Assembly (NCBI GenBank): GCA_937928215.1
Contig: CALFWL010000020.1
Location: forward strand, 50,518-114,517
DNA length: 64,000 nt
Source: an uncultured Pirellulaceae bacterium
GTDB taxonomy: Bacteria; Planctomycetota; Planctomycetia; Pirellulales; Pirellulaceae
Direction of reading: 5' to 3'
Position numbers and translations under genes: made by a program. Under the pieces are notes generated by a model, which ran no database searches, had not been told where the DNA came from, and was given only the letters and a program-made list of their open reading frames with translations. Shown here piece after piece: positions 2,065 to 59,450 of this stretch (within the stretch, counting starts at the first letter, position 1; every line of letters begins with the position of its first letter).

Positions 2065-2937
2065 TTACTTAAACTGAATGAACCGATTTGCTTCGCCATT
2101 GGCGGTCGACGCCTCGGCTTCGTTAAGGATGCATCGCAACCCACTGCGAAAATTTCCGTGACGGTTGTCCAACCGCAACTCGACGCGGACGGTGCCGCTG
2201 TTCGAATCCGTGACGGGAGCGATAAAGTCGATGGTTGCCGTCGTGTTCTGATTGGTGGCTGGAATTGAAACACGTGCACGCCCACCCTGCTTCATTTTCG
2301 CCGCCTGTTGCGTCGTCAAGAAATATCGAACCTTTAGCTGGTCTAACTGAGCGATGGTTGCAACATGGCTTTCGACGGTCGTGACGGCCTCGCCTTCATG
2401 GTGTGGCAGCGTCAATACGACACCGTCATTTGGCGCTAGGATGATTCGACGTTCGATCTGCGTTTGAATTTTCCTCATTTCAATTTCGTAGCCGAGAAGT
2501 TCATCCGTCGCCGTGTTCACGTCGGCGTTGGCAAGATCATACTCAAGTTGAGCCTGTCTGACTTCTTTGCCGCTGGCGTGATTCTTCTCCAGCAGTGCGT
2601 TCATTTGCGAGAGATGGTGTTCGGCATTTTTGAGCTTCGCCTGAGCAGCTTCCAGCTTCCCACGCGATTCGAGCTTCAGTTTTGCGGCTAACAACGCCAC
2701 CTGAAGCACCTCGGTGTCTAACCGGCAAATCACGTCACCTGCTTTGACGGTTGAACCTTCACCAACTTCGATTGATTTGATGACGCCTGATTCAGGCGAC
2801 GCTACGTGTACCGTTTTGAAAGGCTCGATGAACCCTTCGTCGGAAGCGGGCGATTGGGCAGCCAGCTGATGCCCAAACATCACCAACACGAGCATGGTCA
2901 GGGTTAAAACAAGAGCTAGATTTCGTATCGTTTTCAT
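2065..2937 (-). CDS. HlyD-family secretion protein / periplasmic adaptor subunit
   Basis: N-terminal signal anchor (MKTIRNLALVLTLTMLVLVMF), lipoyl motif (SPESGVIKSIEVGEGSTVKAGDVICRLD), long coiled coil and beta-barrel motif (IILAPNDGVVLTL). I placed the start at ATG 2937, which forms an ATGA overlap with the stop of the SecA-like gene (2934-2937). The ORF track extends to 2973. Confidence 0.85.
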   Translation of the reverse strand: MKTIRNLALVLTLTMLVLVMFGHQLAAQSPASDEGFIEPFKTVHVASPESGVIKSIEVGEGSTVKAGDVICRLDTEVLQVALLAAKLKLESRGKLEAAQAKLKNAEHHLSQMNALLEKNHASGKEVRQAQLEYDLANADVNTATDELLGYEIEMRKIQTQIERRIILAPNDGVVLTLPHHEGEAVTTVESHVATIAQLDQLKVRYFLTTQQAAKMKQGGRARVSIPATNQNTTATIDFIAPVTDSNSGTVRVELRLDNRHGNFRSGLRCILNEAEASTANGEANRFIQFK

Positions 2938-4970
2938 TGGTAGTTCACCGCTTTTTTGACGTCGTCCAGCCATAACTCTTCTCGCATCACGTTCTCGCGT
3001 TGTTTTTGGCTTTCTTTCTCAGCGGTCTGCTGAGCTTTCGAGATTTGTTTATCAAACGATGGATTAGGTTGTCCGTCACGGCTTGCACATAGACTGGCAA
3101 GAACCCTCTCCAGCGAGGTGGCAAAACGTTTCACGATTTCGTCGTCGGCAGAAACGAAGAACTGTCCGCTGCCCGGATCACCTTGCCTGCCCGCGCGTCC
3201 GAGAAGTTGTCGATCAATTCGCCGTGAGTGGTTTCGTTCGAACCCTATCACGTGCAAACCACCTGCACCCAGGGCACCGTCTTGCAAGTTAATGTCCGTG
3301 CCTCGCCCAGCCATATTTGTTGCCACGGTGATCGCGGCAGGTCGGCCTGCGGCTGCAATCAGTAGCGCTTCGTCAGCATCTTGGACTCCATTGAGTACTT
3401 GGTGAGGAACCGCTTGCTGAGCCAATGCTTGGGAGATTTGAAGGGTTTGCTGGATCGTTCGCGTGCCAATCAGAATGGGCTGCCCGGACTGATGGCGGGT
3501 AACGGCGTCCGTGACGACAGCCGAAATCTTCCGGCGTTCGCTCGAAAAATATCGTGTTGGGATTTCGCATTGTCTGGACTGCTTTCTGCGTGGGATCGCC
3601 ACGACCGGCAATTGATAACAGCTGAACATTTCCCTTTGATGCCCTGAAACGGTTCCGGTCATCCCACAGAGCAGGCCGTATCGCTGGAAATAGCGTTGTC
3701 GCGAGATCCGAGCCAGTGTTCGTTTTTCTTCCGTGATTTCAACGCCTTCCTTCGCTTCGACGGCTTGGTGCAGGCCGGCTCGCCAGTTCCGGTCGCTAAA
3801 AATTCGCCCCGTGTATTCGTCAACGATTTTGACTTTTCCGTCGTGAACGATGTAGTTGATGTCACGTCGCATCGTGTGCTGAGCACGTAATGCTGATTCA
3901 ATGTACTGTTGCCATGGACGAACAAGGTGGTTCGACGATAGTTGCTGGTCAACCAGCACTTGAGCCATGTCAAGGTCCGCCAACATGTCAAAAGTGGCTC
4001 TTGGTTCAGGGACGTGGTTTGGCGGAACAGCGTGAATTGTTTCTGAACCCGCTTGCGTCAGGAAAACAGTTTTTGCTTGATCATCAACAACAAAGTCATG
4101 ATCTCGTTGAAGGTCTAAGGCGATCTCATTTGCTCGATGGTAGTGCTGTTTAACGGCGGAGCTCTTGAGTTTATTTAGCGAGCCAGAACTAAGCACCAAA
4201 GGTGTGGTGGCTTCGTCGATTAGAACGCTGTCAATTTCGTCAATGATCGCCACCGCGTGGCCTCGTTGGCAGTGGTTGGGGCGGACTTTATCTTGTGAGA
4301 AAAGTTGGCGTTTTAAGTTCTCTCCCAAACGATCGGGGCCGCGTGACATCAAAGAGATTTGATCGCGTAAAAAGTCAAATCCAAACTCGTAGCCTGTCGA
4401 AAAGGTCACGTCGCAAGCATAAGACTTGCGTTTCGCATCAGCTGACTCACCATCGTTAGAAATGCCAACCGTCAGCCCTAGCAACTGTAGCGCGGGAGCC
4501 ACGAACTCAAAATCTCTCTGCGTTAAGTATCCATTGACCGTAGCGACATGAACGCCCCGCCGTGTGAGCGCGTGAGCGACGATCGGGAAAGTGCTGGTCA
4601 GAGTTTTGCCTTCTCCCGTTTGCATTTCCACGATGGCTCCGCGCGACATTGCGATACCGGCCAGCAACTGCACGTCGTACGCAGTCATCCCAGAGGTGCG
4701 AATCAGGGCTTGCTTAGCCAGTGAAAGCGACCTGACCAAGACGTGGTCGGCCATCGCCTTTTGAGGTAACTGAGCAACTTCGTCTTGGAGTAAGCCAATT
4801 TGTTCACGCAGTCCCTGATCGCTTGTCGACGCAAGCGAGTCGCATCTCTCGTTGATGGATTGAAGCAGGCGATGATCCGCCGCGGTCGGCGCGTGACAAC
4901 GCGTCGCAAGCATGTCTCGCACGCTTGTGTAGTTCTTTTTTTTGAGAGACTGGGTTTTGAACATGGTCAT
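2934..4970 (-). CDS. SecA-family ATPase paralog, C-terminally truncated (NBD1-PPXD-NBD2 plus start of the scaffold helix only)
   Basis: Walker A MQTGEGKT; Walker B / SecA box AIIDEIDSVLIDEATTPLVLSSG; VATNMAGRGTDI; GGLHVIGFERNHSRRIDRQLLGRAGRQGDPGSGQFFVS. These all align to E. coli SecA motifs. The protein is 678 aa against about 900 aa for canonical SecA and ends about 75 aa after the RQGDxGS motif. There is a 14-nt gap to the upstream TolC-like gene and a 4-nt overlap with the downstream HlyD gene. Confidence 0.9.
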   Translation of the reverse strand: MTMFKTQSLKKKNYTSVRDMLATRCHAPTAADHRLLQSINERCDSLASTSDQGLREQIGLLQDEVAQLPQKAMADHVLVRSLSLAKQALIRTSGMTAYDVQLLAGIAMSRGAIVEMQTGEGKTLTSTFPIVAHALTRRGVHVATVNGYLTQRDFEFVAPALQLLGLTVGISNDGESADAKRKSYACDVTFSTGYEFGFDFLRDQISLMSRGPDRLGENLKRQLFSQDKVRPNHCQRGHAVAIIDEIDSVLIDEATTPLVLSSGSLNKLKSSAVKQHYHRANEIALDLQRDHDFVVDDQAKTVFLTQAGSETIHAVPPNHVPEPRATFDMLADLDMAQVLVDQQLSSNHLVRPWQQYIESALRAQHTMRRDINYIVHDGKVKIVDEYTGRIFSDRNWRAGLHQAVEAKEGVEITEEKRTLARISRQRYFQRYGLLCGMTGTVSGHQREMFSCYQLPVVAIPRRKQSRQCEIPTRYFSSERRKISAVVTDAVTRHQSGQPILIGTRTIQQTLQISQALAQQAVPHQVLNGVQDADEALLIAAAGRPAAITVATNMAGRGTDINLQDGALGAGGLHVIGFERNHSRRIDRQLLGRAGRQGDPGSGQFFVSADDEIVKRFATSLERVLASLCASRDGQPNPSFDKQISKAQQTAEKESQKQRENVMREELWLDDVKKAVNYQ

Positions 4971-7037: not shown

Positions 7038-7667
7038 TTACAAGACGCGACTGATGTCGAAGTTCACCGAGTTTAACAATCGTATCAGCTGAGCGGTAGA
7101 ATCGACTTCCATCTTTTCGAAGGTACGGCTTTGATGCCGCGATGCGGTTGGCACGGTCACACCAAAGTGTCGTGCGATTTGCTTCAGTGATTGGCCCTCG
7201 AACACCAATGGCAAGAACTCACGTTCACGATCGGTAAGCGATGAAATGAGCGATTGAATTCTTCGCTTTTCGGCGCGAGCCGAGTGTTCACGTCGTGAAA
7301 CGTCTAAGGCGCGTTCGACTCTTGCCGCTAGCACTTTGCCATCGACGGGTTTTTCAAGAAGATCGATGGCTCCATTTCGCAATGCACGCGTGGCCGAAGA
7401 AACGTCTACATCGCCAGAAATAAAAATAATGGGCGTCGGCATGTTGCGGTCGATCAACATCTGCTGAAGCTCAAGGCCATCAATCGCTGGCATACGAAGA
7501 TCGAGCAAAAGACAACAGACGACACTCTCGTCCAAGGTGTTAAGCCAGTGAACGGGAGACTTGAAGCATGTTATCTTGAAGCCTTTTGATTCGAGCAAAA
7601 ACTTAAGCGATTCGCGTGCGGCATCATCGTCGTCGATCAGGTACACGGCCTCGTTGGATCGTTGCAT
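7038..7667 (-). CDS. two-component response regulator, FixJ/LuxR family (REC + LuxR-type HTH)
   Basis: REC motifs VYLIDDDDAARESL, LLLDLRMPAIDGLEL and DLLEKP. LuxR HTH: LTDREREFLPLVFEGQSLKQIARHFGVTVPTASRHQSR. I placed the start at ATG 7667 (MQRSNEAVYLIDDD). The ORF-track start at 7748 adds 27 non-homologous residues. Confidence 0.9.
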   Translation of the reverse strand: MQRSNEAVYLIDDDDAARESLKFLLESKGFKITCFKSPVHWLNTLDESVVCCLLLDLRMPAIDGLELQQMLIDRNMPTPIIFISGDVDVSSATRALRNGAIDLLEKPVDGKVLAARVERALDVSRREHSARAEKRRIQSLISSLTDREREFLPLVFEGQSLKQIARHFGVTVPTASRHQSRTFEKMEVDSTAQLIRLLNSVNFDISRVL

Positions 7668-8053
7668 CGTTGCACTGCCAGTCGAAAGGGGAAGGGAGAA
7701 AGCAAGTGCGGGGGGGTAGACCGCCATGATAACAAATTCGAATAACAAAAAAAAGTGCGTATTGATTAATGGCTCAACGCTTCAACGCTTGCAAATAAAT
7801 CAGGCGCGGGATGAAAAACAATTCGTGGCCGATTTTTCAGGAGTAAAACTGGCATCAGGCGAACGCTCATCCAGTCAACCATGCGTGGCGCGGGCTGAAT
7901 CTGTTCACTCGGATAGCGGAAGACTCTCGAACGTCGACATAACAACGCAAAAGAGAGTTCACCGTTCTTGGGCATGCGAAGGAGGGATTTTGGAGGCGGT
8001 TCCCTAGCGATCTTGCCACGTTTGGATCGTGCGACCGGTTACCGGTTAACCGT

Positions 8054-9358
8054 TCACTTGAATTCTGGTAGTTCAATCGTGAATAAGGCACCCTCTGGTT
8101 GATTGGGCTCGGCTCGAATCGTTCCATCAAGGGAGCGCATAATCGAGCGACAAATCGATAGTCCTAGCCCTAGTCCCGTGGGAGAGTCTGTTTCAAATGG
8201 TTCAAAAAGCTTGGAAGGATCGGCTGAAAATCCGCAGCCATTGTCTCCAAAAGTAATCTTCACGATTGAGTCGACCTGCCGGGTAGAGACCTGAATGATG
8301 CGGCTTTTAGTATTCTGGCGGAGTGCCTGAATCGCATTGGCCAGCAGGTTAACCCAAACCTGTTCCAATTGAATTCGGTCGGCTGCCACTGTTAACTGTT
8401 TGGGACAAAGATCCAAGCTTATTTCAACTTGCATTTCCGCCAGCGACGGCCCCATCAGCGCGAACGCTTCGTGCACGGTGTCGTGAATTTTTACTCGCGT
8501 CTTATTGATCGGTTTGTTCTCGGCCATCCGGCGCAGACGCTTGACGATGGCGGAGGCGCGTCTTGCTTGATCTTCTGCCTTGACAATCACGGCCTCGAAC
8601 GTTTCCAGCCCTTTTGCTCCCTCCCCAATACTAGCGCGACAACCACTGAGGTAGTTTGCGACTGCTCCGAGTGGTTGATTGAGCTCATGGGCCAATTGGC
8701 CTACGATTTCACCCAGCGTTGAAATGCGCCCGTAGTGGTTCAATGCTTGTTCCCGCTGGCGCAATTGCCGCTCCATCCGTTTCTGGTTGCTAATGTCACG
8801 CCATGCAGACCGACTGTAGAGAATTTCTCCCTGTTCATTTCGAACAGCAGTGACCTTGAGACTTACGTCCAGTGCCGTGCCGTCTTTACGCCTGAGAACT
8901 AATTCGGTTTCACGGACCTCCCCGTGTTTCACGAAAGTCTTAAATGCAACGATGACTCCGTTATGGCACGTTGGGTGATACAGCCTCATTAAATCCCGAC
9001 CGATTACCTCGTCGCGACAGTATCCAAGACGGTCGAGTAGCGTTTGGTTGCATCGCGTAACCGTTCGCGTCTTCGGGCATACCGAAACATAAAGGTCTGG
9101 CGCATTCTCGTACAGGTCTTCGAACCGTCTCCTTTCCTCGCGCAATTGCAGTTCAGTTGAGCGATGACGTACTTCTGCTTCGGCTAGGCTTCGTTTCGCT
9201 TCTGCAAGTTGGTTTTTGAGCGAATGAACTTGATCCGTCATTGCAGGCTTGCCGTTGGCTGCTGCGCTGCAATCGGTTTCGCGATGTTGACCGGACATAA
9301 ACTGGCGACCTTGAAGAACTGAATGGATGGGAACCCATAACTCCCCAAAATATCCCAA
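8054..9358 (-). CDS. cytoplasmic PAS-domain sensor histidine kinase (FixL-like architecture)
   Basis: Coiled coil, PAS segment (DLYVSVCPKTRTVTRCNQTLLDRLGYCRDEVIGRDL), H-box LAHELNQPLGAV, N-box WVNLLANAIQAL, and G-boxes GDNGCGF and GLGLGLSICRSI. I saw no TM segment. The start is uncertain (ATG 9358, 9298 or 9241). Confidence 0.9.
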   Translation of the reverse strand: MGYFGELWVPIHSVLQGRQFMSGQHRETDCSAAANGKPAMTDQVHSLKNQLAEAKRSLAEAEVRHRSTELQLREERRRFEDLYENAPDLYVSVCPKTRTVTRCNQTLLDRLGYCRDEVIGRDLMRLYHPTCHNGVIVAFKTFVKHGEVRETELVLRRKDGTALDVSLKVTAVRNEQGEILYSRSAWRDISNQKRMERQLRQREQALNHYGRISTLGEIVGQLAHELNQPLGAVANYLSGCRASIGEGAKGLETFEAVIVKAEDQARRASAIVKRLRRMAENKPINKTRVKIHDTVHEAFALMGPSLAEMQVEISLDLCPKQLTVAADRIQLEQVWVNLLANAIQALRQNTKSRIIQVSTRQVDSIVKITFGDNGCGFSADPSKLFEPFETDSPTGLGLGLSICRSIMRSLDGTIRAEPNQPEGALFTIELPEFK

Positions 9359-9439: not shown

Positions 9440-12400
9440 TTACCTTGCGCTCGCGTTCGTCGAACTGACGTTCAATTGATAGAGATGGTTCTTCCATCCA
9501 ACTTGCAGTGGGTTATTGTTCGCTTCGTGCATCGAATTGATCGTCTCGTAAGCCGAATTTCGCTCAATGCTCTGAACGGTATCCCGTTCGCTGAAAAACA
9601 GCGACGAATGCGTTGCAGGATGGAAATATCGACGCATATTGAATCCGTCATGACGGTTTACATCCGATTGGATCGGTGCCGTTTGTTCAACATCCATGCG
9701 GTGTGGATGCTTCCAAATAACCGCATTCGGGAAGTTGGCAACCCAGTTTCCGCCGGCGTCAGCGACAACTTGCCGTTCGCCAATCACATTGCCCGCTTGG
9801 TCATAAATCCTTAGGTTTAATGTTGTGCCGGGTTCGGCCAAACCACTAAAGATCGGGTCGACCGGAATCGGCTTGAGCGTGCGATCTTCTGTTCGATCGT
9901 CATCACCGAAAAGACCACTGCGGTCACCACCAAACGGATTCGCGAAGTTGTTAAAGCTGTCAAAAGCAAACACAAGAACATCGTCTTCACGTGTCGAACT
10001 GTTGTTTGACGGATCAAGATCTGGACCGTTAAGCCCATCATCAGTGACGGTTGCTGTGTTGATAATCACATCAGCCAGTGGATCCTCAATGACGAACGGA
10101 ATGGTGACGAAGATTGTCAATGTCGCCGATCCACCACGTCCATCAAGACTTCCAACGTCCCAAATCAACTCGCCCGTTGAAGCGTCGTAGTTCACGTTGG
10201 ATGGATCGTCCGTGGTGACTTGATTACGGTCGACTACGGAAGTCGGGATCATATCCGTGACGGTCACGCCAGTACCATTTTGGTCACCGATATTGGTCAC
10301 CGTGATCGTATATTCGAATGAATCACCCACCATCGCGGTTTCGGTTAGATTGGATGTTTTCTCAATCTGATAGTCAGGCGTCGCATTCAAACCAACTGTG
10401 TTGACAGATGTGTTGTCGGTTAGATCGGGGTCTGTTCCATTGTTTCCATCATCTGTAACCGACGCACTGTTATCGAACGAACCGACAAGTTGGCCAACCG
10501 GCTCCTGAACGGTGACCGTGACGGTCAGTGTTTTGGTTCCGCCGCCACCGGCGATAGAACCGGCATCCCAAACCAGATTTCCGGTCGTTGGATCGTAAAC
10601 AACGTTCGCCGCGTCGTCAGTGACAACTGAAAAACCGTCCAACACATTGATTGGAAGTGTGTCACTCACCATGACACCCGTACCGCCCTGATTTCCGTTG
10701 TTGGTAACTTGCAGGAAGTAATTGAAAGTTTGCCCGGGAACAGCAGCCTGCGTCAGATCGTTCGTTTTCACGATTTGATAGTCAGGTTGAGCCGTTACCG
10801 TATTCACATCGTCATCCGAGTTATTGGTCGTGTTCGGATCGACGCCATTGAATGCGTCGTCCGCAACGGTAACAACATTCGTTAGACCAGCAATCCCCGA
10901 ATTCAGTGGGTTGATCACATCGGCCATGACAACAATCGTAACGGTCTCGCCCATGCCAACCGATGAGAGATTCCAAGTAATCGTACCGGCAGACATGTCG
11001 ATCGCACCGCCAGAAATTCCATTTACCGTTGCCGACACGTTCTCCAAAATATCGGTTGGGAACGTATCCGTTACCACCACGTTCTGTCCGCGAAAAGTTC
11101 CGTTGTTGGTCAGCGTGATCGTGTAGTCGATCGTTTGGCCGGGAACAACGTTACTTAGCCCATCGTCTTTGGTGATCACGTAATCTGGCGTCGCATGGTA
11201 CCCAAAATCCGTGTCATCGTTGGTTTCGTTCAGCCCAAGAGTAACACGCGTCGTGTTGTCGGTCGTCCCGTCAATGTCGAACGTTGGATTCAAACCCATC
11301 GCATCAGGCAAGTCGTTGGAATCAACGTTGACGGTGTAGTTACCTGCGATCAGGTTCGCAAAATTGTAGTTGCCGTCGCCGTCTGTTGTTTGAACTCGGG
11401 TAACATCAATCGTTCCGTCACCGTCAACATCGATTTCGAGCGTTACGTCAACTCCTGCGATTCCGCGATCGTTGTCGCTTGGATCGAACGCTCCTCCGTT
11501 GCCGCTGTAGTCGAAGAAGATCGTGTCACCGATCGAGCTATTACCACGGTAGCCAAAATCCTTGTCGTCAACGTCTTGCCCTGACGCCAGATCGTAAGTC
11601 GATGCGTTTGGCGTGCCCAATCCGTCGTCGTCATACGTCTGCGTGGTTCCCGCTGGCTGCGTCACCCGTACCGTATACCGTCCGGCAGGTAGATTATCAA
11701 AAATGTACTCCCCGTTAACGTCGGTGAGCGTCGAAAGCGTGTGGTCAATATTGCCGTCGCTGTCGTAGTCGATGTCCAGTTCAACCGTCAGCCCCGCCAA
11801 GCCAATCTCGTTTGCATCTTCGAAGCCGTCCGCATCTTGATCCCAGAATACCGTGTCACCGATTGAGCCCGTGCCCATAAATCCGAAATCGACATCATCG
11901 TTGTTACCGCCGGTGGCGGACAGCGTCACCGTTGCCGTGCCATCGTTGGTCACGCCCGTGTCATCAAATTCTTCTGTGATTGTCGTCATGCCATCGGGGA
12001 GGCTTGAGGTGTCGACCGTTAGCTCAAAATCGCCCTCAGGCAAGTGTTCAAAGCGGTACGATCCTGCCCCGTCGGTCGTTGTCGTCAGTTGAAAATCGTC
12101 ATCCGTTCCAAAGACCCCGTCTTCACCTGCAAACCCTAGAGTTACGTCGACTCCTGCGATGCCCGGTTCGCCACCGTTTTGACCACCGCTTCCGTCCGCG
12201 TCGTAGTAGATCGTGTCACCGATGGTCAACGCGCCCGTGTAACCGAAATCGATGTCGTCTCGATCGCTTCCGCCAACCGAGAATTCAGCGGTGTGAACCA
12301 ACGTGCTGGCGCCGTCATTCGTTTCCGTAGTTTGAGTCAGCCCCGTTGGCAAATCGTTGACATCCACAGCGACTCGATAATTGCCATCAGCCAGCAAACC

Positions 12401-21400: not shown

Positions 21401-23392
21401 CAAAATGTACTCAAGCGTGTCGCCCGGAGTCGCTCCAGCCGCACCCGTGTTATTGACGATGTTAACGGTTTTTTGGATCGCGATCGATTTGTCGTCAAGA
21501 ATATGCTCGGGCCCCGAACTCGGATCGGCAACCGCGTTGTTTGTGCCTCCTGAATCACGTCCGTCAACGGGAATCCAATCCCCGACAGCGCGTGCATTGT
21601 TTAGGCTGCGCGAGTCCGGTGCCGAGGTCGTATCGTCTTCGCCGCTGACAGGAATGACTCGATCGCCATTCGCGTCGACTTCCGCGACATAGAATGAAAA
21701 CGTGACTGAGACATCTGCATTGGCCGTCGTACCAGTCACTGCTGCATCGGGGGTGATGACCAAGTCGAGATTATTCCCTGGAAACGACAACGCGCTTAAA
21801 TTGTCGGAGTAATCCGTTGTTACAGCACCGTTGATTCGCACTTCATCGATCGATGTAACCACCACGTTGTTGGGGAGACTGTCGATGATATCGAGGTTGC
21901 TGATCGTTTGTCCGGTAGCAATGTCAACGTCAATTCGGTATTGCCGTTGATGATTCGGTCCGGTCGCCGTTTCGCTTTCTGGACCAAGATAGATTTTTTC
22001 AAGCGTCAGCAATGTCGGCGTGATTGTCAGCTGCTTGACCCAGCTGTTTGCTGGATTGGAAGCATCGGAAACATCCGTTCCCGGGTCGCTTACGACAGTC
22101 GGATCTGGTGCTGTTGGGTTGTTCAATGGATCACTGCCGAAACGGAATCCCGATCGCGACTGGATGATCAGATCGGTCCCAAGATCAGCTAGGCTATTGG
22201 TCGTCGCCGTGACCACGATGTCAGCTTGGGGTTGATCGGGAGCGAACGATCCAAATGGCAATTCCAAGACAACCAGTTTATCGCCTGCTGTTCCTGTGAT
22301 TTGGAACGGATTCCCCGACGAATCAACAGCAAAGGGGTGATCAATCGTTCCTGTCGTGCCGACACCTGCACCGTCATCATCGGGAAACACGAGCTCGATC
22401 GAGTTGAGCGATTGCCCAAGATAGGTTGCGCCTACGAAGTCAATGCCATCAACCGTGTCGGTACCGGCAGCACCATCGGCGCCGTTGACCGGGAAAATCA
22501 GATCGATGTACGGTCCATAGCCAACGTCTGTCCCCGTGTTGTCGAAGGTGATCGTGAAATCAAAATCTTCACCCAATTGAACCTGTTGGCTTGGGGTCTC
22601 AAATTCAACGTCTGGGCCAACGGCGAGAACCCCGTTGTAGCTGACTTGCAGGTGCTGTGAGAAAACAACACTCGATTCGAGAGTTCCGTTCGTGTACTCG
22701 AGATCCCAGTCACCGCCTCGGTGCGAGACTCCGGTGTCATCATCACTTGCGGCGACATCCGTGCCTGTAAGTTCGGCCAACGAGTCAACCAGTTCGCGAC
22801 CTTCAGCGGTTTCTGCCAGATCGCAACCGTAAAGCAACAGGTCACCAGTTGAATTGAGTGCTTCACCCCATCTCGCAATGAGTCCCGCATTGGCACTCAA
22901 GTTTTCTGATGTAACCCACGTATTCCCGAGTCGAAATGCCGCGTCGTCGCCATGGGTAACAAGGTGTAGCGCGTCCAAATCACGATACTGTGAAAGAACT
23001 TCAGAGACTTGCTCAACACCATCCGAATCAGCATCAAGGAGAACGACCTCGATGTTCCGGTGCTCGTCTTCATTATTCATCAAGTCGTCAACAAGTTGTT
23101 GAAAATTGTCGACGCTTGTATCCACAATTACCAGTTCATGACGCACCTGTGAGTCCGACATCGAACTTGAAGACTGCTCAGTCGAAGTTGCTTCTTCCTC
23201 GTGATACGTTGCCACATCCTGTTCGTAGCTTTGAAACGCAGCATTCAGGTTTGCGTCCCCCTGACTGCCATCGCCGACGTTCGGATCTGTCCCGGCATCC
23301 ATCACAGCATCGAACAGAATCCGATCTTCCAATTTTCGTAACGTAGCGCTGTTTTTGCGAGCTGCTTTCGTCGTCTTTGGTCTGCGTGGCAT
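9440..23392 (-). CDS. giant (4650 aa) acidic repeat surface/adhesin-like protein: basic N-terminus + LEDRILFDA motif, DUF4347, many DUF11-type repeats, 10 SdrD/Cna-B-like repeats, C-terminal Ig-like region
   Basis: A single uninterrupted ORF. The DUF4347-like region is aa 85-233 (22694-23140): ELVIVDTSV...LHLVTHGD...LLLYGCDLAE...TGTDVAASDDDTG. DUF11-like units recur (for example TYTYNIVVFNDGNDTATGVNVQDFL and TLTYTLNYANTGNQDATGVQIIETVP). SdrD-B-like units occupy aa 2924-4065. The protein is rich in D/T/G/N/V with very few Cys. I saw no classical signal peptide and no GGxGxD RTX nonapeptides. Confidence 0.9.
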   Translation of the reverse strand: MPRRPKTTKAARKNSATLRKLEDRILFDAVMDAGTDPNVGDGSQGDANLNAAFQSYEQDVATYHEEEATSTEQSSSSMSDSQVRHELVIVDTSVDNFQQLVDDLMNNEDEHRNIEVVLLDADSDGVEQVSEVLSQYRDLDALHLVTHGDDAAFRLGNTWVTSENLSANAGLIARWGEALNSTGDLLLYGCDLAETAEGRELVDSLAELTGTDVAASDDDTGVSHRGGDWDLEYTNGTLESSVVFSQHLQVSYNGVLAVGPDVEFETPSQQVQLGEDFDFTITFDNTGTDVGYGPYIDLIFPVNGADGAAGTDTVDGIDFVGATYLGQSLNSIELVFPDDDGAGVGTTGTIDHPFAVDSSGNPFQITGTAGDKLVVLELPFGSFAPDQPQADIVVTATTNSLADLGTDLIIQSRSGFRFGSDPLNNPTAPDPTVVSDPGTDVSDASNPANSWVKQLTITPTLLTLEKIYLGPESETATGPNHQRQYRIDVDIATGQTISNLDIIDSLPNNVVVTSIDEVRINGAVTTDYSDNLSALSFPGNNLDLVITPDAAVTGTTANADVSVTFSFYVAEVDANGDRVIPVSGEDDTTSAPDSRSLNNARAVGDWIPVDGRDSGGTNNAVADPSSGPEHILDDKSIAIQKTVNIVNNTGAAGATPGDTLEYILRFQISDYYTFGDLVIRDVFQDGQSFDFGYGATFDITDMNGNVTGNFTVRQVTDADGGQTLVVDQTQIDNADNTGEDGATPDGSDGSTTLTFDLSKVLTDNSAADGILQGGRTTATNQGGAFGTIRFRTVIQDQFSDSFGSGDRSVDQGDSITNNSLTISGSVRENAEDGDINSTTGVTESDSSSTSVRIQGGSLVKEVYAINGNTTLPNGPSGKVSLTPGDVVTYRIEYTLATSDFENLKLTDFLPLPIFDVQDHNADGVIDASDNWTFNVGSSFDATAPASGVIEFGAGDTFYNSNATDSSIIPTISVNPGGNALELDYGSYDDPSSSLNTIELYVSVTAQNSPTADGLFLTNIVRAEEGTTNSTPTVIDRIVQIEVTQPELSITKGIVSTDSTTAEFDNTALGPAGITFGTAGTADPLFSGGNITSDGLALQRIDSNITNGIDAGDRIRYAIVLENTGNSTRGAYDVQISDALPDGFSLVSGSVQVVDGTGAALTYSGAEADLFTTGIELNDPGATPDTGDGTNAGAVDGYNATSGRNVVIIFYDVTADSDVAATQTYTNTASLTNYAGQEGGDNHAATPLTDEAFAVAAGFTATKTVVSTSESHTGVESSVERVTIGEIVRYRIQVALPEGTLTDFQIRDLMPTGLTFIDDGTSLVTFVSDNSAITSSTLVGAGYYTAGNETNVASISPTDAFGDGDVSRNANNDSDNYTTSGRDVYFKLGDVVNTDNDANTEYVIVEFNALVDNTVSGGNDGGTAGSPDGGDNRDNSLRLYYDANNNGSVNTSDEQFYSLPSGDRPRIRITEPHIENIDKTANVSGGDAGDVVTYTISFDVADGDGRSNAFDIRVLDSLPSELSNLSLTEIRVGAATLGSGFTDNTAGDVLDLVIDQVAKGTTVEVDFTATIQSGISPGDVITNEVDITWSSLPGEYGTADGSGGNSTGSDLQSLDGTNTGGMTYETGSGSAYGERNGNDAGNNDYLGDDSHSITIDLTPAVTKTLDSTSINSAGNGTNDAVIGEIVTYTVTLNLNEVTMDNARLVDTLDAGLAFVDVTNVTTTGGVSFTGDGNNPDSVTSNGRVITWELGTISDATSDDGNDGVAGDSDGTIEITYRAIVTNANTNQSAQTLDNSVRFTWDDDPGTAPNPRENITATADNRVNVVEPEITIVKNAAVDTDGDGFDDGTTADAGDDIRYTIQLTNTSGVDAFDLGFVDNLPMFGGSSTILSPSFTVVDTAGIVTAANFTLSGSNVAGWTLQSTGNIDFAATPGRVITLEIDGTLAPDVQPEQVIANNASVTWHSIDGDIAVGDQSAHTTDDTERTGADGSTGNPNNYASTDSANITVLAPTILKQIVSTGINNGSTNTDAHATIGEFITYSITIDVPEVGIPTVEIIDQLDAGLEFVRLDNVVASAALSTDAASDDFATTATFNPTVTGDGSSATPYGLTFDLGTISNSDNDNSVIEQITLTYTVRVMNSVDADGNGSSAGDSLNNTARMQWNSGVNQTAGESVAIEVVEADLNVDKQLTSSTTGDAGDTVTYEITISHTANSDTDAFDVTFSDALPDEITFGSFQATLSTAGDLDTLLEYDSGTNTVRTIAGQSFDLDFGEDVVITITGTLATAETEPGEIISNTANVQWTSLDNANADDGDDANERGGSGVGENDYSDSSTNTALAISEPTVAKTLIGTSVDNVNNGASQAVVGETATYQVVLTLTEGTYASLQLIDTLSSGYEFISIDNIVAESDGAATTDITTSRGTGDFSDLTTFNPTTGGGDHIFDLGTVTNANTNNGDVDTLTITYTVRVTNTVGNNGNGSGTGTSLDNEAQLSWTADGSTETSNTSSAATVEVIEPDLTILKAVNNDTPNLGETVTYTLTINHSAASDTDAYDLVISDTLPEDLTLNTGTISVTLGGSVLTVVDDYAIVTGSNGFRISGLDLLDSGEALVITYDADVTTDIADIGNSYNNTGNLTWTSLDGASGNERDGDGGNAGEDDYADSSLESLTIIQPDLRITKENGVAAVVPGSTYTYNIVVFNDGNDTATGVNVQDFLDGSIFDLSSVTTDDASNVTYDSGTGELNWDAGSINATTSKTLQVTVSVRNSLAAGINDVTNSASATHDDIDPTNNNTGSDTDTVNANPVLTLTKSDGQANADLDDTLTYTLNYANTGNQDATGVQIIETVPSGTTFAGTADWTDIGGGRFRFDIGNLAAGASGSVTFQVTVNDPQPIGQHTISNSATIDDDNTNGGTAGIDATATDDTDVPSSIAGRVYNDFDNDGSFDAVDGEHGIESVRIELYDTSSGSPVFVGFTNTAADGTYSFSGLLGDQYEIRQTQPTDYNDGLESDGSEGNGSTVTNDRITSIELNAGVDATNYNFGERGVSIEGTVFVDNDRDGSQQTGETTGIDGVTVELYDSTGTTLIATTTTRPDGSYSFDNLPAGDYILRQTHPTLYTSTSPDQIAATVPLAGLTDQDFGEALSDLGNFVWFDANNDGLQTGEEGLADVDVTLTYGGADNDLSTIGDNVVYHTTTDANGFYSFTELFNGNYTVEIDAADLPSGVTGTTETDDSSAAIDGTSNITIGGSDRFDVDFGFTGGGSIGDFVFLDVDGDGVQDAEDVGLANVTVNVVFAGADGVIGNDDDLSFTTVTDSDGRYSVDNLPGGNFEVSVDTTDTDLLGSVVGVSGTESNSGTVSVTLADNETNDDVDFGFAGTLSLGDRLWFDGNGDGVQDVLNEPGLAEVEVTLNFAGQDGIFNNADDITLTDTTDANGNYQFDNLADGEYRITYNSLDLPQGMSPTHEIDDSAAAVDGTSNITLNGSNRDDVDFGFRGAGSIGNFVWHDVDGDGVQDSGEPGLAGITVDLQFAGDDGVFDTSDDFRLTTETDANGSYGFANLADGNYRVNVDAADAELPGNMTGVAGAESISGTANVTLDATNGRNQDDIDFGFAGTQSVGDFVWFDADGDGNQDVGEPGLGDVAVTLTYAGQDGAFGTTDDVMLNTTTDASGGYNFGLLADGNYRVAVDVNDLPTGLTQTTETNDGASTLVHTAEFSVGGSDRDDIDFGYTGALTIGDTIYYDADGSGGQNGGEPGIAGVDVTLGFAGEDGVFGTDDDFQLTTTTDGAGSYRFEHLPEGDFELTVDTSSLPDGMTTITEEFDDTGVTNDGTATVTLSATGGNNDDVDFGFMGTGSIGDTVFWDQDADGFEDANEIGLAGLTVELDIDYDSDGNIDHTLSTLTDVNGEYIFDNLPAGRYTVRVTQPAGTTQTYDDDGLGTPNASTYDLASGQDVDDKDFGYRGNSSIGDTIFFDYSGNGGAFDPSDNDRGIAGVDVTLEIDVDGDGTIDVTRVQTTDGDGNYNFANLIAGNYTVNVDSNDLPDAMGLNPTFDIDGTTDNTTRVTLGLNETNDDTDFGYHATPDYVITKDDGLSNVVPGQTIDYTITLTNNGTFRGQNVVVTDTFPTDILENVSATVNGISGGAIDMSAGTITWNLSSVGMGETVTIVVMADVINPLNSGIAGLTNVVTVADDAFNGVDPNTTNNSDDDVNTVTAQPDYQIVKTNDLTQAAVPGQTFNYFLQVTNNGNQGGTGVMVSDTLPINVLDGFSVVTDDAANVVYDPTTGNLVWDAGSIAGGGGTKTLTVTVTVQEPVGQLVGSFDNSASVTDDGNNGTDPDLTDNTSVNTVGLNATPDYQIEKTSNLTETAMVGDSFEYTITVTNIGDQNGTGVTVTDMIPTSVVDRNQVTTDDPSNVNYDASTGELIWDVGSLDGRGGSATLTIFVTIPFVIEDPLADVIINTATVTDDGLNGPDLDPSNNSSTREDDVLVFAFDSFNNFANPFGGDRSGLFGDDDRTEDRTLKPIPVDPIFSGLAEPGTTLNLRIYDQAGNVIGERQVVADAGGNWVANFPNAVIWKHPHRMDVEQTAPIQSDVNRHDGFNMRRYFHPATHSSLFFSERDTVQSIERNSAYETINSMHEANNNPLQVGWKNHLYQLNVSSTNASAR
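11198..14623 (-). repeat. intragenic tandem array of 10 diverged ~105-120-aa SdrD B-like / Cna-B-type repeats inside the giant gene
   Basis: The protein-level period reads (I/L)GDxV(W/F)xDxDGDGxQDxGEPG(L/I)xxVxVxL......TTTDxxGxYxFxxLxxGxYxVxV.......DxDFG(F/Y), counted 10 times. I located the boundaries by back-translating IAGRVYNDFDNDG (14623) and DDTDFGY (11198). Confidence 0.85.
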
Positions 23393-23641: not shown

Positions 23642-25348
23642 TCAGCGACGCACAGAACGAATTTTGGCTTTGCGAGTCGTCGGAGCGGACAGACTGGTGC
23701 TCAAGTTAAGCAATGCTTCGACTTCCCGGATGACGGCCTCCGGTTGGTCGTCGACGGATTCGAATGGCACTTCGTCGGTCGTTGCTGCGGGTTCGACGGC
23801 CTGCGACACGTCCATCGCGTCACGCTCGTCATACCGAACCACTCGGTTTCGCCCGTTGTTCTTGGCGGTATAAAGAGCCTGGTCGGCTTGGTCAAGCAGA
23901 TGTTGCGCATCCATTGGTCTCAGTTCACGCGATGAAACGCCCATGCTGGCCGTGATTTTCAAACCGCTGATCTCGTTGGAGCAAACTGCTTGTCGAACCT
24001 TTTCAGCCAGACGAGAGGCTGGACCGGTCGTCGCGTGAGGCAGCATGATCACGAACTCCTCGCCCCCCATGCGTGCCACTGTTCCGTCATGGCCGACAAA
24101 ATCTCGCAACAGTCGCCCGAAATCTCTGAGAACTTCGTCTCCCTTACCGTGACCGTGAGTGTCATTGACGTTCTTGAAGTGATCGATGTCCACCATGATG
24201 ATGGCCAACCTAGCAGTCGATTCGTCTGACCACGCTTTCTCAAGTCGCTTAAAGAACTCGCGCCGGTTCAGGCATTCGGTCAGTTGGTCGTATGATGCAA
24301 GGAAATTCAGCTTGACGTTCTGGCGTTCAACTTCGTCCCGCGATTGACGCAGTGTGGAGATCATCTGCGACAACTCGTGTTTCTTGTTTTCCATCGCCGT
24401 AACGTCTTCGAAGCTAACCAGCACGCCTCGGCATTCGTTCTGGTTCGAAACGATGGGAGTCGCGTTGACAATGAATTTTCGCGTTGGTTGATCGGTGAGC
24501 GTCAAGTTGACCACAACGCCACAAACGGGTCGTCGCTCTTTGAGAGCCTGGCTCCATGGCAGTTCACGAGTTCCGAAATCAGACGATTGAGTCCAGACGT
24601 AATCGTCGATCGCTGTTCCAAGTAACGAGTGAGGTTCACGATCAAGAATCTGCCCGAACGCCTCATTGGCGTGTCCAATCTCGTTATTCATGTCAAGCAA
24701 GACCACGCCTTCTGCCATCGTGTCGAGCGCTGATCGTACCCGGTCGGGCACGACTTGGCTCGGGTCGAGATACTTGAACGACCGTTCAAAAATCGGCCAC
24801 GCCACAAGCGAAACAAACGCACCGATAAACGTCGCAAGCGGGACGGGGAATCCGAAAAACATACTCCAGATGTTGGTTATTTCTGGTTTGAACGCCAACT
24901 CGATCGAACCGTAGTATCTGCCGTTGGCAAGTAACTCAGCCGATACCTGGTTAGGTTCGAGAGCTTGCTTGGTGCGTTCCTGTTCGATGCCAGTCGCCGT
25001 TCGGTTGCTGCGACTGGTTTCAGAGGAATATGAAACCGGCACCTTCCAGTTTGCCTCATGCGGACCCGCACTTAGCAGGGTTCCTCGAGCTGTGCGAACT
25101 CCAATCGAAACAAGGGTCGGTTCTGACGCAACGAATTGCTCCATCGCTAGCTGCAATTGATTGTCACGCTTGGAATTGATTAACGAACTTGCAACGACGG
25201 ACACGTACCTAGCGACCGTGACGCGATGCTGAGCTTGGTAGCCGGCGGGGCTTTGCAACAGGCCCAAAGACAGCGCAACCCAGATCGCTGCGGAGGCGAT
25301 TAGGCCTACACAAATCGCAAGGCGAATGGCTGTTTTGAGTTGATGCAT
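23642..25348 (-). CDS. membrane-anchored PAS-GGDEF diguanylate cyclase
   Basis: Two hydrophobic spans (AIRLAICVGLIASAAIWVALSLGLL and FFGFPVPLATFIGAFVSLVAWPIF) flank a putative periplasmic loop. PAS segment DTMAEGVVLLDMNNEIGHANEAF. GGDEF domain with DIDHFKNVNDTHGHGKGDEVL and active-site MGGEEF. No RxxD I-site lies 5 residues upstream (VGHD instead). Confidence 0.9.
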   Translation of the reverse strand: MHQLKTAIRLAICVGLIASAAIWVALSLGLLQSPAGYQAQHRVTVARYVSVVASSLINSKRDNQLQLAMEQFVASEPTLVSIGVRTARGTLLSAGPHEANWKVPVSYSSETSRSNRTATGIEQERTKQALEPNQVSAELLANGRYYGSIELAFKPEITNIWSMFFGFPVPLATFIGAFVSLVAWPIFERSFKYLDPSQVVPDRVRSALDTMAEGVVLLDMNNEIGHANEAFGQILDREPHSLLGTAIDDYVWTQSSDFGTRELPWSQALKERRPVCGVVVNLTLTDQPTRKFIVNATPIVSNQNECRGVLVSFEDVTAMENKKHELSQMISTLRQSRDEVERQNVKLNFLASYDQLTECLNRREFFKRLEKAWSDESTARLAIIMVDIDHFKNVNDTHGHGKGDEVLRDFGRLLRDFVGHDGTVARMGGEEFVIMLPHATTGPASRLAEKVRQAVCSNEISGLKITASMGVSSRELRPMDAQHLLDQADQALYTAKNNGRNRVVRYDERDAMDVSQAVEPAATTDEVPFESVDDQPEAVIREVEALLNLSTSLSAPTTRKAKIRSVRR

Positions 25349-25646: not shown

Positions 25647-27878
25647 GTGAGGCCTGTTGTGTCAGTTGATCTTGAAATTCAATTCAAGCCGATCCTGCGC
25701 GTCATCTTGATGATGACGACGTTGATCCCTATCGCAATCGGCGCGGATTCGAAAGTTCAGGCTCAGAATGCGATTGGGCGTTATCCCTTGAATGTGGATG
25801 CGGATCCGCCAGAGTCTCATCTTGGTAACGCCCACTCACCAACGACAGGGGCGACAGAAACAACGGTTGCAGCTGAAAAATCCAACGCGACAGGCACCCA
25901 AAGCCTCAAGCACCAAGACGCGATGGAAGCGACTCGGGCGAGGTTCGCAAACCAATTCGAACAGGCCTACGCTCGCGTTGCGTCGTTGCAAACGGTTGTG
26001 CTTGACTCGCAAGGACGTTCGCGTTCCACGGGTGTCGATGAGAGGTCGATCGTCGATTTTGAGACAAAGCGGGACGAAAGTGGGCGAGCCAAAGCGCAAT
26101 CCCCGCGACCTGCTGAAAGAGGTCATCGAGTTGGCCACGTCTATCCGTTGGTGACTCCGCTCCCTGAGCTGGAAGACGTGACTGGCCGTTTTCCACGAGT
26201 CGCCAGCAAGCCGGCAGATCTGAATCTGGCTGGTTCGAATGATTTTCTTGTGTCTCCTCTTCCTGCGTTGACGGGCGATCGGATGGAAGAACAAGACACC
26301 ATGGAATCAGGTGCTGCAAACAGCTCGCAATTGAATTGGTGGAACCAATTGGTCAATCAACCACTCCATCCCGGCAACGAAGTCCAAGCCGTCGATTCGA
26401 ACCTGCTGGTTTACATCGCGTTGCAGAACTCACCTCGAATTCAAGCGCTCAGCCGCGACCCGTTGATTCGCGATTTTGAAGTCATCGAAGCGGATGCAGC
26501 GTTCGACCCGGTCAGTTTTCTGCAAACGCAATTTGCCGATCGTTCGGATCCGTTAGGTGGAGCCCTTGACGCGACTCGCGATGGATCGGACACCATTGAA
26601 AATCATCGCTGGACTTCCGAAGGCGGCCTGCGCAAACGTGCTCGAACAGGAGCCACCTACGAACTGTCCCAGCGGCTCGGTTTCGAAAACAGCAACGTTG
26701 CGGTGTTCGATCCAAACAATCAAGGCACGGCCCAAATCGCGCTAAATGTGACTCAACCGTTAGCCCGAGGACGCGGAAAGTACATCAATCAGAGCCAGAT
26801 TCTGATTGCTCAGTCGCGCGGCGGAGCGGCCTGGGAATCGTTCTCGGCGGAACTTCAACAAGAAATCGAAGCGGTCGTCTCTGCTTATTGGCGACTTTAT
26901 TTTGATCGCAGCGTCTTTCTTCAGAAGAAGCGTAACGTTGAACGAGTCGCAGAAATTCTGGCAACACTTGAAGGTCGAGCCAACCTAGATTCGCTGCCAA
27001 GTCAGATCACGCGGGCTCGATCGTCACTCCAATCGCGGAAAACAGATCTGGCGAACGCTTTCCGTGACGTGCGAAACTCAGAAACGGAGCTACGTCGCCT
27101 GATCGCAGACCGAAATTGGCAGGCCAATCAGTTCATTGAATTGTTGCCGGTCGAAGCTCCGGTCAACGGGACGGTTGATATTTCTCTGGATCATGTCGTA
27201 ACGACATCATTGGAAAATCGACCTGAAATTCGCGAAACCATGCAGCGAGCAAAACTGGCCGGAATCGAACGTGACATTAGCGTGAATGATTTATTGCCCG
27301 AACTGTCGTTGCTGTTGGGAACCTATGTCAGCACGCTCCAGGATGACGGTCGTGCGGGTCGTGCTTTCGTGGATCAGTTTGGAGAAACCAAACCGGGTTA
27401 TTCCGTCGGCCTGGAGTTTGAATTGCCGCTGGGCAATCGGGCGGCACGCAGTCGATTGGTTCAGCGGAAACTCCAGTTGGCGAAAATCAAGAATCAAGTA
27501 GATGAGATGATGCAAAACGTGATTGCTGGATCTCAGACCGCATTGCGTCGACTCAACTCGGCCGCTGAAACTTTGCAGGCGGCCAATCAAGCGATCGAAG
27601 CAGCCGACAGCGACATGAAACAGAACATCCGCCGCTGGGAGAACTTCGCTCTGGTGGAGGGTGACTTCGCTGACGGCCAGACTCCGACTACGGTGTTGGA
27701 CCAGTTGCTCGATTCACAGGAACGCTTGGCCGCCGCCGAACTGGTCGCTGCTCAGGCCCAGCTACAGCTGAAAGTTGCAGAAGTTGTACTACAGCGAGAG
27801 ATGGGGACGCTGTTGATCCAAAGACAAATCGACCCGCGACGAGCCATCGAGAATGGCACGCCGAAAATCCAGTTTTGA
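25647..27878 (+). CDS. TolC-like outer membrane efflux protein (OEP family), paralog 2, with a ~250-aa N-terminal extension
   Basis: Same subfamily pattern as paralog 1: FDPVSFLQTQFADRSDPLG...GATYELSQRLGFENSNVAVFDPNNQGTAQIALNVTQPLARGRG...YWRLYFDRS, then VGLEFELPLGNRAARSRL. The ORF-track start is GTG 25647. ATG 25710 (MMTTLIPIAIGADSKVQAQ, signal-like) is a plausible true start. Confidence 0.85.
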   Translation: MRPVVSVDLEIQFKPILRVILMMTTLIPIAIGADSKVQAQNAIGRYPLNVDADPPESHLGNAHSPTTGATETTVAAEKSNATGTQSLKHQDAMEATRARFANQFEQAYARVASLQTVVLDSQGRSRSTGVDERSIVDFETKRDESGRAKAQSPRPAERGHRVGHVYPLVTPLPELEDVTGRFPRVASKPADLNLAGSNDFLVSPLPALTGDRMEEQDTMESGAANSSQLNWWNQLVNQPLHPGNEVQAVDSNLLVYIALQNSPRIQALSRDPLIRDFEVIEADAAFDPVSFLQTQFADRSDPLGGALDATRDGSDTIENHRWTSEGGLRKRARTGATYELSQRLGFENSNVAVFDPNNQGTAQIALNVTQPLARGRGKYINQSQILIAQSRGGAAWESFSAELQQEIEAVVSAYWRLYFDRSVFLQKKRNVERVAEILATLEGRANLDSLPSQITRARSSLQSRKTDLANAFRDVRNSETELRRLIADRNWQANQFIELLPVEAPVNGTVDISLDHVVTTSLENRPEIRETMQRAKLAGIERDISVNDLLPELSLLLGTYVSTLQDDGRAGRAFVDQFGETKPGYSVGLEFELPLGNRAARSRLVQRKLQLAKIKNQVDEMMQNVIAGSQTALRRLNSAAETLQAANQAIEAADSDMKQNIRRWENFALVEGDFADGQTPTTVLDQLLDSQERLAAAELVAAQAQLQLKVAEVVLQREMGTLLIQRQIDPRRAIENGTPKIQF

Positions 27879-55922: not shown

Positions 55923-56240
55923 ATCATGAAGTAGTTCACGAAGTCAAAACTTTTTTGGGGACGGCGGGTTCATTCAAAGAGGTCCGTCGTCGATAAGCCT
56001 CTTTCCGAATAATGAACGATCGATCGACCAGATCGCTCCGTAGAACCATCGTTCAAAGCAGTCATCATCGCAGTCCAAAACGCCACTTCTGTCGGTTCAC
56101 CACCAGCGTGGGCCACTTGGACGTCCGATTCCTGCCGAATACGATGTCAACAATTAACTGGTTTGAGAGTGCCTACGGTAGTGAGCGCCGCTCGCATCAT
56201 AGATTGAAGATTGATAAAGCGGACTAACACAATTCACTTG

Positions 56241-59200: not shown

Positions 59201-59450
59201 TTCAAAAACGGTGGTTGAATCGTATCGACGCCTGACCAGTCACACTCCGAGTACCGAGCAAACGAAGATCCTTGAGGGATTATTCACCGAACAGATCGCG
59301 TTTTTTGAGGCTCGTCCTGATCAGGCCAAAAAGCTGCTGGAAGTGGGAGACGCTCCCAATGCGAAAAAACTCGCTGCGCCGCGACATGCTGCCGCGACCG
59401 TGCTGGTAAATGCAATCATGAATCTTGACCAATGCGTGAGAAAACAATGA
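56241..59450 (+). CDS. PSCyt1 (planctomycete cytochrome c) / DUF1549 / LamG / DUF1553 domain protein
   Basis: Heme-binding [20 protein letters not shown]. DUF1549 region: [61 protein letters not shown]. Central LamG-like region. DUF1553 region: [35 protein letters not shown]. Start is ATG 56241 or 56250. Confidence 0.9.
   Translation: [1069 protein letters not shown]

Follow-up and report, generated by a model that had tools for sequence, protein, structure and literature searches.

In the universal Sec pathway, the classical motor is SecA, which is not known to work with any channel other than SecYEG. We analyzed a 64,000-nucleotide stretch of DNA (hereafter the window) from an uncultured Pirellulaceae bacterium (contig CALFWL010000020.1, positions 50,518 to 114,517) and found a gene for a short SecA-like ATPase, the short SecA, which is without the helical wing, the returning scaffold helices and two-helix finger (IRA1), and the C-terminal tail. 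Judged from its sequence and from the genes that accompany it, the short SecA probably (we estimate roughly 0.6) serves as cytoplasmic ATPase for an envelope-spanning exporter dedicated to giant DUF4347 proteins, in the role of an ABC transporter; the details of this model are weaker than its outline.

The window gene belongs to a family that genome comparisons had already brought to light in 2015. Kamneva, Poudel and Ward (PLoS One 2015; PMC4452313) named its members "secondary SecA_DEAD domain proteins", whose SecA_SW is wholly or partly lost, and reported GAF-HlyD, Peptidase_M50-HlyD and HlyD/Biotin_lipoyl proteins, with an occasional OEP protein, as conserved neighbors. They proposed that the SecA_DEAD protein acts as the ATPase in place of the ABC component of a type-I-like system, with the M50 protein as the membrane pore, and suggested a sensory role for the GAF protein. 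Their phylogeny revealed a clade apart from canonical SecAs and sister to actinobacterial SecA2; horizontal transfer of the locus was inferred, canonical secA was present in the genomes analyzed, and Planctomycetes were among the hosts. In the searchable literature, the family name was reused in one later paper only, by the same first author, and the system is not mentioned in the accessible portion of a major 2021 review of tripartite systems. PMC4452313 makes no mention of PqqD, cargo or DUF4347. To our knowledge, the PqqD-like domain, the DUF4347 giants with their N-terminal motif and the linkage counts described below are found neither there nor in other searchable papers, and the retained long helix likewise goes beyond that report.

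The family is widespread, and its members have lost the parts of SecA that engage SecY. If the short SecA powers a tripartite exporter, the SecA motor would be a portable module, tripartite secretion would have a further type of energizer beside ABC, RND and MFS, and the export of multi-thousand-residue surface proteins without signal peptides in planctomycetes and others could be accounted for. The leader motif, the recognition domain and the protease site offer concrete handles, and the system is directly testable.

Architecture of the short SecA

The open reading frame (ORF) of the short SecA opens with ATG and encodes 678 residues, while the start chosen by the gene caller, Met3, gives 676. 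A Pfam scan revealed SecA_DEAD (3.5e-86), SecA_PP_bind (PF01043, 6.5e-28) and P-loop_SecA (8.1e-49) and no match to SecA_SW, the helical wing/scaffold model. In agreement with these domains, and as a preliminary description of this DNA had claimed, the motifs of NBD1, the preprotein cross-linking domain (PPXD) and NBD2 were all found intact, starting at residues 116 (MQTGEGKT), 244 (DEIDSVLIDEA), 551 (TNMAGRGTDI) and 591 (GRAGRQGD). The catalytic residues were invariant or nearly so in an alignment of 63 relatives. Two inserts were also observed. The PPXD carries a lineage-specific insert at approximately residues 316-350, which was modeled with low confidence, and NBD1 contains an insert of approximately 21 residues before Walker B (residues ~209-234; 4269-4346, minus strand; consensus LGxxxRxxLRG...QRGH), which is absent in the SecA proteins of Escherichia coli and Bacillus subtilis and was modeled with lower confidence in the short SecA.

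The missing parts were evident from the alignments. When full-length E. coli SecA was compared with the whole window by tblastn, only residues 23-662 of 901 were aligned; residues 663-901 had no counterpart in the 64 kb (E<=1), and no second secA was detected in the window by the same query. A sequence search of the PDB matched residues 67-672 to residues 51-603 of B. subtilis SecA (E 3e-123). The two-helix finger, helical wing and C-terminal domain are thus missing, as had been claimed earlier, with the alignment stopping at E. coli residue 662. The earlier placement of the ORF end at the beginning of the long scaffold helix, in contrast, needed correction: the AlphaFold model (built on 63 relatives; pLDDT 89.7, pTM 0.88) ends in a 41-residue helix at residues 637-677, which places the end of the protein near the end of the scaffold helix, and roughly four-fifths of this helix is kept. 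The retained scaffold helix and the family-specific NBD1 insert are both conserved and may be interfaces for partner proteins. In a Foldseek search with the model, the top matches were all SecA structures, including the engineered E. coli truncation N68 (5K9T).

Three lines of evidence show that the truncation is genuine. First, an independent assembly (L085) showed 99.92% identity to the window across 14,964 bp with zero indels and the same ORF architecture. Second, the gene of the downstream adaptor, MFP1, overlaps the stop codon of the short SecA gene (ATGA at 2934-2937, or an overlap of 40 nt if the first ATG is used). Third, the homologs are similarly short; the best 120 matches of a homolog search were 536-719 residues long with the same three Pfam domains and no SecA_SW, and the best 150 representatives of 50%-identity clusters were mostly 600-690 residues long, with canonical-length SecAs only further down the list. 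The possibility raised in the preliminary description, that a sequencing or assembly artefact hides C-terminal domains encoded in frame, is contradicted by the indel-free L085 assembly and by the tblastn search, which found no such domains.

Genetic linkage, family and candidate cargo

The genes around the short SecA are transcribed from the minus strand in the following order: a giant protein of 4650 residues, a PAS kinase, a LuxR regulator, a TolC-like outer-membrane factor (OMF), the short SecA, MFP1, a 118-residue protein and the start of a second adaptor, MFP2 (Table 1). L085 adds 4.8 kb, which contains the remainder of MFP2 (635 residues in full), a 729-residue Peptidase_M50-HlyD fusion (the M50-adaptor protein) and, after the cluster, a second DUF4347 protein. 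A common core was found in three planctomycete contigs (L001-L003, including Rhodopirellula islandica), comprising the giant, the OMF, the short SecA, the adaptors MFP1 and MFP2, with or without a small protein between them, and the M50-adaptor. No ABC transporter gene was present in the cluster in the window, L001-L003 or L085.

The M50-adaptor protein combines signatures of a protease and of a recognition domain. HExxH and FDG were invariant among four aligned planctomycete-type sequences, and the nearest NCBIfam model for the protease part was daptide_HExxH, an intramembrane metalloprotease of ribosomally synthesized and post-translationally modified peptides, which was matched at 1e-46 and under its cut-off. 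The first ~110 residues matched Pfam PqqD in 19 of 24 diverse members (best E 1e-7), and a profile of this N-terminal region aligned with the whole of the PqqD structure 3G2B (E 5e-4). PqqD-like domains are leader-peptide recognition elements in peptide-maturation systems. No small precursor-peptide gene was seen.

Linkage was assessed from the side of the partner, as metagenome contigs were queried with the M50-adaptor protein and not with SecA. This search returned 80 loci; the flanks of 12 were too short to judge, and 68 were evaluable. A SecA-like gene on the same strand was adjacent in 61 of the 68. It lay directly downstream of the M50-adaptor gene in 58 of these 61, in the order MFP2, M50-adaptor, short SecA and MFP1, unlike the order in the window. 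The complete SecA-like ORFs of these loci encoded 628-742 residues, with the exception of one ORF of 491 residues (L132). The same order as in the distant metagenome loci was observed on the chromosome of Motiliproteus sp. (Gammaproteobacteria, L078).

A scan of a genome collection with the family alignment and universal motifs yielded 80 loci at 34-40% identity. These were mostly canonical SecAs, with the one proteobacterial short SecA of L078 among them, and were used as tree outgroups and controls. A neighbor-joining tree was built from 274 SecA-type sequences. Of the 181 proteins in it with up to 760 residues, 179 fell into one clade, which holds the window protein and all 42 metagenome copies adjoining M50-adaptor genes. 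The sole longer member of this clade, P0168 (1013 residues), carries an N-terminal extension of ~350 residues. Bacillota-type SecAs and then actinobacterial SecAs were nearest to the clade, and the canonical Pirellulaceae SecA (L032) was only 34% identical to the short SecA. The hosts of the short form include Planctomycetes, Proteobacteria, Verrucomicrobia and other phyla. In databases, the genes are labeled "preprotein translocase subunit SecA", a name that misleads when genomes are annotated and pathways reconstructed. We also observed SecA-like modules of comparable similarity to the family in P0223 (4930 residues; module at 2989-3609) and P0235 (1554 residues).

The candidate cargo is the giant protein encoded next to the operon. 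Its N-terminal motif, LEDRILFDA, was not accompanied by a hydrophobic signal-peptide core (maximum Kyte-Doolittle mean over 15 residues, 0.55). The neighboring giants share this N-terminal layout, with a basic start, a LE(P/D)RxL(F/L)SA motif, an acidic linker and DUF4347, and again without a hydrophobic core. With a regular expression for this type of motif, 13 ORFs were retrieved from the cluster loci (1.09 Mb) and none from the 2029 ORFs (1.46 Mb) of unrelated control loci. All 13 were at least 150 residues long, several were open-ended fragments, and the longest exceeded 2000 residues; in nine ORFs of the cluster loci, DUF4347 followed the motif. The motif is common to the planctomycete-type and the distant loci. 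We take "LEPR-XLL", which is mentioned incidentally in PMC10868602, to be the name of this motif; the NCBIfam match of that name expected at the N-terminus of the giant was not obtained. When the giant N-terminus was used to search for homologs, all entries retrieved were short, partial and labeled "DUF4347 domain-containing". Pfam detected no HemolysinCabind (RTX) repeats in the 4650-residue protein.

A proposed exporter and its alternatives

The model builds on domain content, conservation, gene linkage, sequence motifs and the PqqD-like and protease signatures, all of which are observed. Besides the short SecA, the apparatus would include the TolC-like OMF, two adaptors of the HlyD type and a third one that is fused to a polytopic M50 metalloprotease. 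A giant DUF4347 protein would be bound through its LE(P/D)RxL(F/L)SA leader by the PqqD-like domain at the cytoplasmic N-terminus of the M50-adaptor. Cleavage of the leader by the M50 site may follow. The short SecA would then clamp the unfolded chain and drive it, with the N-terminus leading, into a conduit that the M50/adaptor proteins and the OMF form together. Because the short SecA has neither the IRA1 switch nor the finger that inserts into SecY, coupling and regulation of the ATPase would have to come from the partner proteins and not from SecYEG. What we infer in this scheme is the cargo, the direction in which it moves, the cleavage of its leader, the nature of the inner-membrane pore and all physical contacts.

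The preliminary description had proposed that the protein is not a standard translocase motor and was recruited to a different channel. This proposal is supported by the operon context, the M50-adaptor linkage and SecA and SecA2 scores below the cut-offs, and the same conclusion was reached in PMC4452313. A broader reading, which we hold with somewhat less than even confidence, is that the components constitute a pathway without a name, comprising a non-hydrophobic leader read by a PqqD-like domain, clipping by M50, a SecA motor detached from SecYEG, and an adaptor/M50 and TolC-like channel. Such a pathway would merge parts of Sec, type I secretion and peptide maturation.

Several observations weigh against the exporter model. 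Seven evaluable M50-adaptor loci had no adjacent SecA-like gene despite sufficient room, and in one of them, L124 (184-13017), a cluster of MFP2, M50-adaptor and MFP1 lies beside a 2383-residue RTX-repeat protein, with both a SecA-like gene and an ABC transporter absent within 10 kb. A recognized inner-membrane channel is not encoded in the cluster, and we know of no precedent for M50 domains and adaptor helices together forming a pore. The structural model of the short SecA is nearer to SecY-bound, closed-clamp SecA (TMq 0.75-0.78) than to free SecA (0.58-0.67), the PqqD match is weak for the window-lineage M50-adaptor sequence taken alone, and the neighbor-joining tree carries no support values. 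Additionally, the planctomycete-type giants of the window (9440-9760, minus strand) and L001-L003, which are very different in length, share a conserved C-terminal domain of ~105 residues (...VVADAGGNWVANFP...GFNMRRYFHPA...SSTNAS). This domain had no Pfam match, and the distant-type cargo of L098 does not have it. The true signal for export or anchoring could lie in this domain, and DUF4347 could be a retention module instead of part of the signal. Finally, the operon of Methylobacterium extorquens is barely expressed in exponential growth (PMC4452313), and we found no experimental work on any family member in the searchable literature.

An unlikely alternative is that the short SecA is an accessory SecYEG motor similar to SecA2, which would move the giants into the periplasm through SecYEG, with the adaptors and OMF acting in a second step. 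The PPXD and the long scaffold helix contact SecY in canonical complexes, and the short SecA keeps the former and most of the latter; its best superpositions were with the SecY-bound SecA structures 5EUL, 6ITC, 3DL8 and 3DIN. The position of the family in the trees, sister to actinobacterial SecA2 in PMC4452313 and nearest to the SecAs of Bacillota and Actinobacteria in ours, points in the same direction. However, no family member has the two-helix finger or the remainder of IRA1, the candidate cargos do not have a hydrophobic signal-peptide core, and secY2/asp or other accessory Sec genes were not found in the window, L001-L003 or L085. The scores also fall far under all SecA2 equivalog cut-offs, and an accessory motor would leave the tight linkage to the M50-adaptor fusion unexplained.

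Similarly improbable is a role outside secretion, in which the short SecA would grip substrates and, as unfoldase or feeder, hand them to the M50 site of a regulated intramembrane protease, in a signaling or maturation pathway sensed by the GAF-type adaptor and with the giants being incidental. The invariant M50 motifs, preceded by a PqqD-like domain as in peptide-maturation proteases, and the sub-cut-off daptide_HExxH match would suit such a role, as would the M50-adaptor loci without a SecA-like gene and the sensory function suggested for the GAF protein in PMC4452313. Three HlyD-type adaptors and an OMF point instead to a conduit across the envelope, motif-bearing giants are enriched beside the clusters (13 ORFs against none in the controls), and a gene for a small precursor peptide was not observed. 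Lastly, a decaying or mis-assembled secA, that is, a functionless pseudogene fragment or frameshift artefact, for which the missing C-terminal third of SecA is the sole argument, is ruled out for practical purposes by the identical ORF architecture of L085, the single clade of about 180 relatives of similar length with invariant catalytic residues, the adaptor gene that overlaps the stop codon, and the lack of any coding potential for the SecA C-terminus in the window.

Gene neighborhood and comparison with known systems

The coordinates of the short SecA and of the accompanying features are given in Table 1.

Table 1. Features of the short SecA locus in the window
Feature	Coordinates	Strand	Description
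Short SecA-like ATPase, 678 aa	2934..4970	-	NBD1 + PPXD + NBD2 + one long scaffold helix
Walker A MQTGEGKT, aa 116-123	4602..4625	-	T118-K122 invariant in 63 family members
PPXD, aa 274-405	3756..4151	-	Pfam, alignment and model
Retained long scaffold helix, aa 637-677	2940..3062	-	Approximately E. coli SecA 621-662; family-conserved W667
Adaptor MFP1, 302 aa	2065..2973	-	HlyD-like, N-terminal membrane anchor; Pfam HlyD_D23 + HlyD_3; TIGR01730 2.5e-38
Small conserved protein, 118 aa	1635..1991	-	Weak DUF3467 match; between MFP1 and MFP2
Adaptor MFP2, N-terminal 519 aa	1..1557	-	~365-aa cytoplasmic domain, transmembrane helix, HlyD-like start; runs off the window
TolC-like outer-membrane factor, 627 aa	4985..6868	-	Pfam OEP 1.8e-23; stop 14 nt upstream of the short SecA start
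LuxR-type response regulator	7038..7748	-	Pfam
PAS histidine kinase	8054..9358	-	Between the cargo gene and the OMF gene
Giant protein, candidate cargo, 4650 aa	9440..23392	-	DUF4347 at aa 87-256, then SdrD_B, DUF11 and CarboxypepD_reg repeats
LEDRILFDA, aa 21-29 of the giant protein	23306..23332	-	N-terminal motif

The OMF matched TIGR01844 (type_I_sec_TolC) at 2e-13, under the cut-off. The MFP2-type protein was termed GAF-HlyD in PMC4452313; Pfam detected no GAF domain in the N-terminal domain of MFP2 (E<=0.01), and the GAF label rests on that paper. In the assembly of L001 (11959-12880), MFP1 was called as two ORFs of 87 and 232 residues, a split that suggests either a frameshift or an error in sequencing. 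The 118-residue protein occurs in planctomycete-type clusters, and its 10 homologs revealed a very conserved core (HTRLAMPW, ASLP); its AlphaFold model was poor (pLDDT 58). We considered it as a SecB-like chaperone and rejected this assignment, as hhalign against E. coli SecB gave a probability of 0.15% and a PDB profile search was empty. The kinase and regulator insertion (7038-9358) was found only in the lineage of the window and L085 and is missing at this position in L001-L003; the LuxR-type protein is likely the cluster regulator in this lineage.

Directly upstream of the giant gene lies a PAS-GGDEF diguanylate cyclase (23642-25348, minus strand), and a second OEP-family outer-membrane protein of 743 residues (25647-27878, plus strand) is divergent from it; either could be part of the same surface-protein system. 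Some 8 kb downstream of its cluster, R. islandica (L003, 19621-21429) encodes a DUF1186 protein that carries a SEC-C motif. This zinc-binding motif is known from the tail of canonical SecA; its occurrence here is probably a coincidence. Elsewhere in the window, a sucrose-phosphate synthase/phosphatase fusion is followed by an alpha-amylase-family enzyme (40814-45218, plus strand), and a PSCyt1/PSCyt2/PSD1 protein, a typical planctomycete marker in support of the taxonomy assigned to the host, is followed by the ORF 59432-60913 (56211-60913, plus strand).

Among known proteins, the secondary SecA_DEAD proteins of PMC4452313 were the closest counterpart; the window protein agrees with them in architecture, partner genes and membership of a clade of its own, and nothing essential differs. 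Canonical SecA (TIGR00963) is 35-39% identical and has the same DEAD-motor motifs; it also shares the PPXD and, of the scaffold, the first long helix. In contrast to it, the short SecA has no helical wing, two-helix finger/IRA1, C-terminal linker or zinc motif, contains the ~21-residue NBD1 insert, and missed the canonical cut-offs (572.8 bits against 800 for TIGR00963; 551.1 against 814 for NF009538). Canonical SecA also sits among housekeeping genes, whereas the short SecA is encoded in a secretion operon.

SecA2 resembles the short SecA as a second paralog for special cargo with a reduced C-terminal region and a nearby position in the tree. The mycobacterial (TIGR04221) and Gram-positive (TIGR03714, TIGR04397 and NF012136) SecA2 proteins are, however, ~760-790 residues long, compared with 678 for the short SecA, and all of their cut-offs were missed (TIGR04397, 529 against 1085; TIGR03714, 450 against 930; TIGR04221, 422 against 725; NF012136, 385 against 1100). 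SecA2 proteins keep the scaffold and the finger and act with SecY or SecY2. Neither the linked secY2/asp genes nor a Gram-positive or mycobacterial host applies here, as the host is a planctomycete. The engineered E. coli SecA N68 (5K9T) consists, like the short SecA, of the motor and the PPXD without the C-domain, and it is also without the long helix; the short-SecA family, unlike N68, is natural, has kept the helix and has co-evolved partners. Removal of the C-domain in N68 reportedly leaves the ATPase active but deregulated and inactive in translocation, according to published work on N68 and IRA1, the loss of IRA1 taking away the intrinsic brake on the ATPase.

The type I secretion system HlyB-HlyD-TolC shares with the window cluster the HlyD-type adaptors, a TolC-like OMF and very large repetitive cargo encoded adjacent. 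Type I systems use an ABC energizer and one adaptor, whereas three adaptors and no ABC transporter are found here, and type I cargo has a C-terminal signal and RTX repeats, whereas the window giant has an N-terminal motif and no RTX repeats; a conserved C-terminal domain is present in it. C39-domain exporters likewise have a built-in protease for leader processing; judged from sequence, the corresponding element here would be an M50 intramembrane metalloprotease with a PqqD-like domain. Finally, West-Roberts et al. (bioRxiv 10.1101/2023.11.21.568195) described giant proteins of Omnitrophota and actinobacteria that contain SecA_DEAD/PPXD modules with neither scaffold nor wing. These modules resemble the short SecA in combining the SecA motor with the PPXD, in being without the scaffold and wing, and in their link to giant proteins and the presumed export of these; they are fused into the giant beside transmembrane segments, whereas the window protein is a free-standing ATPase of 678 residues with adaptors and an OMF as its partners.

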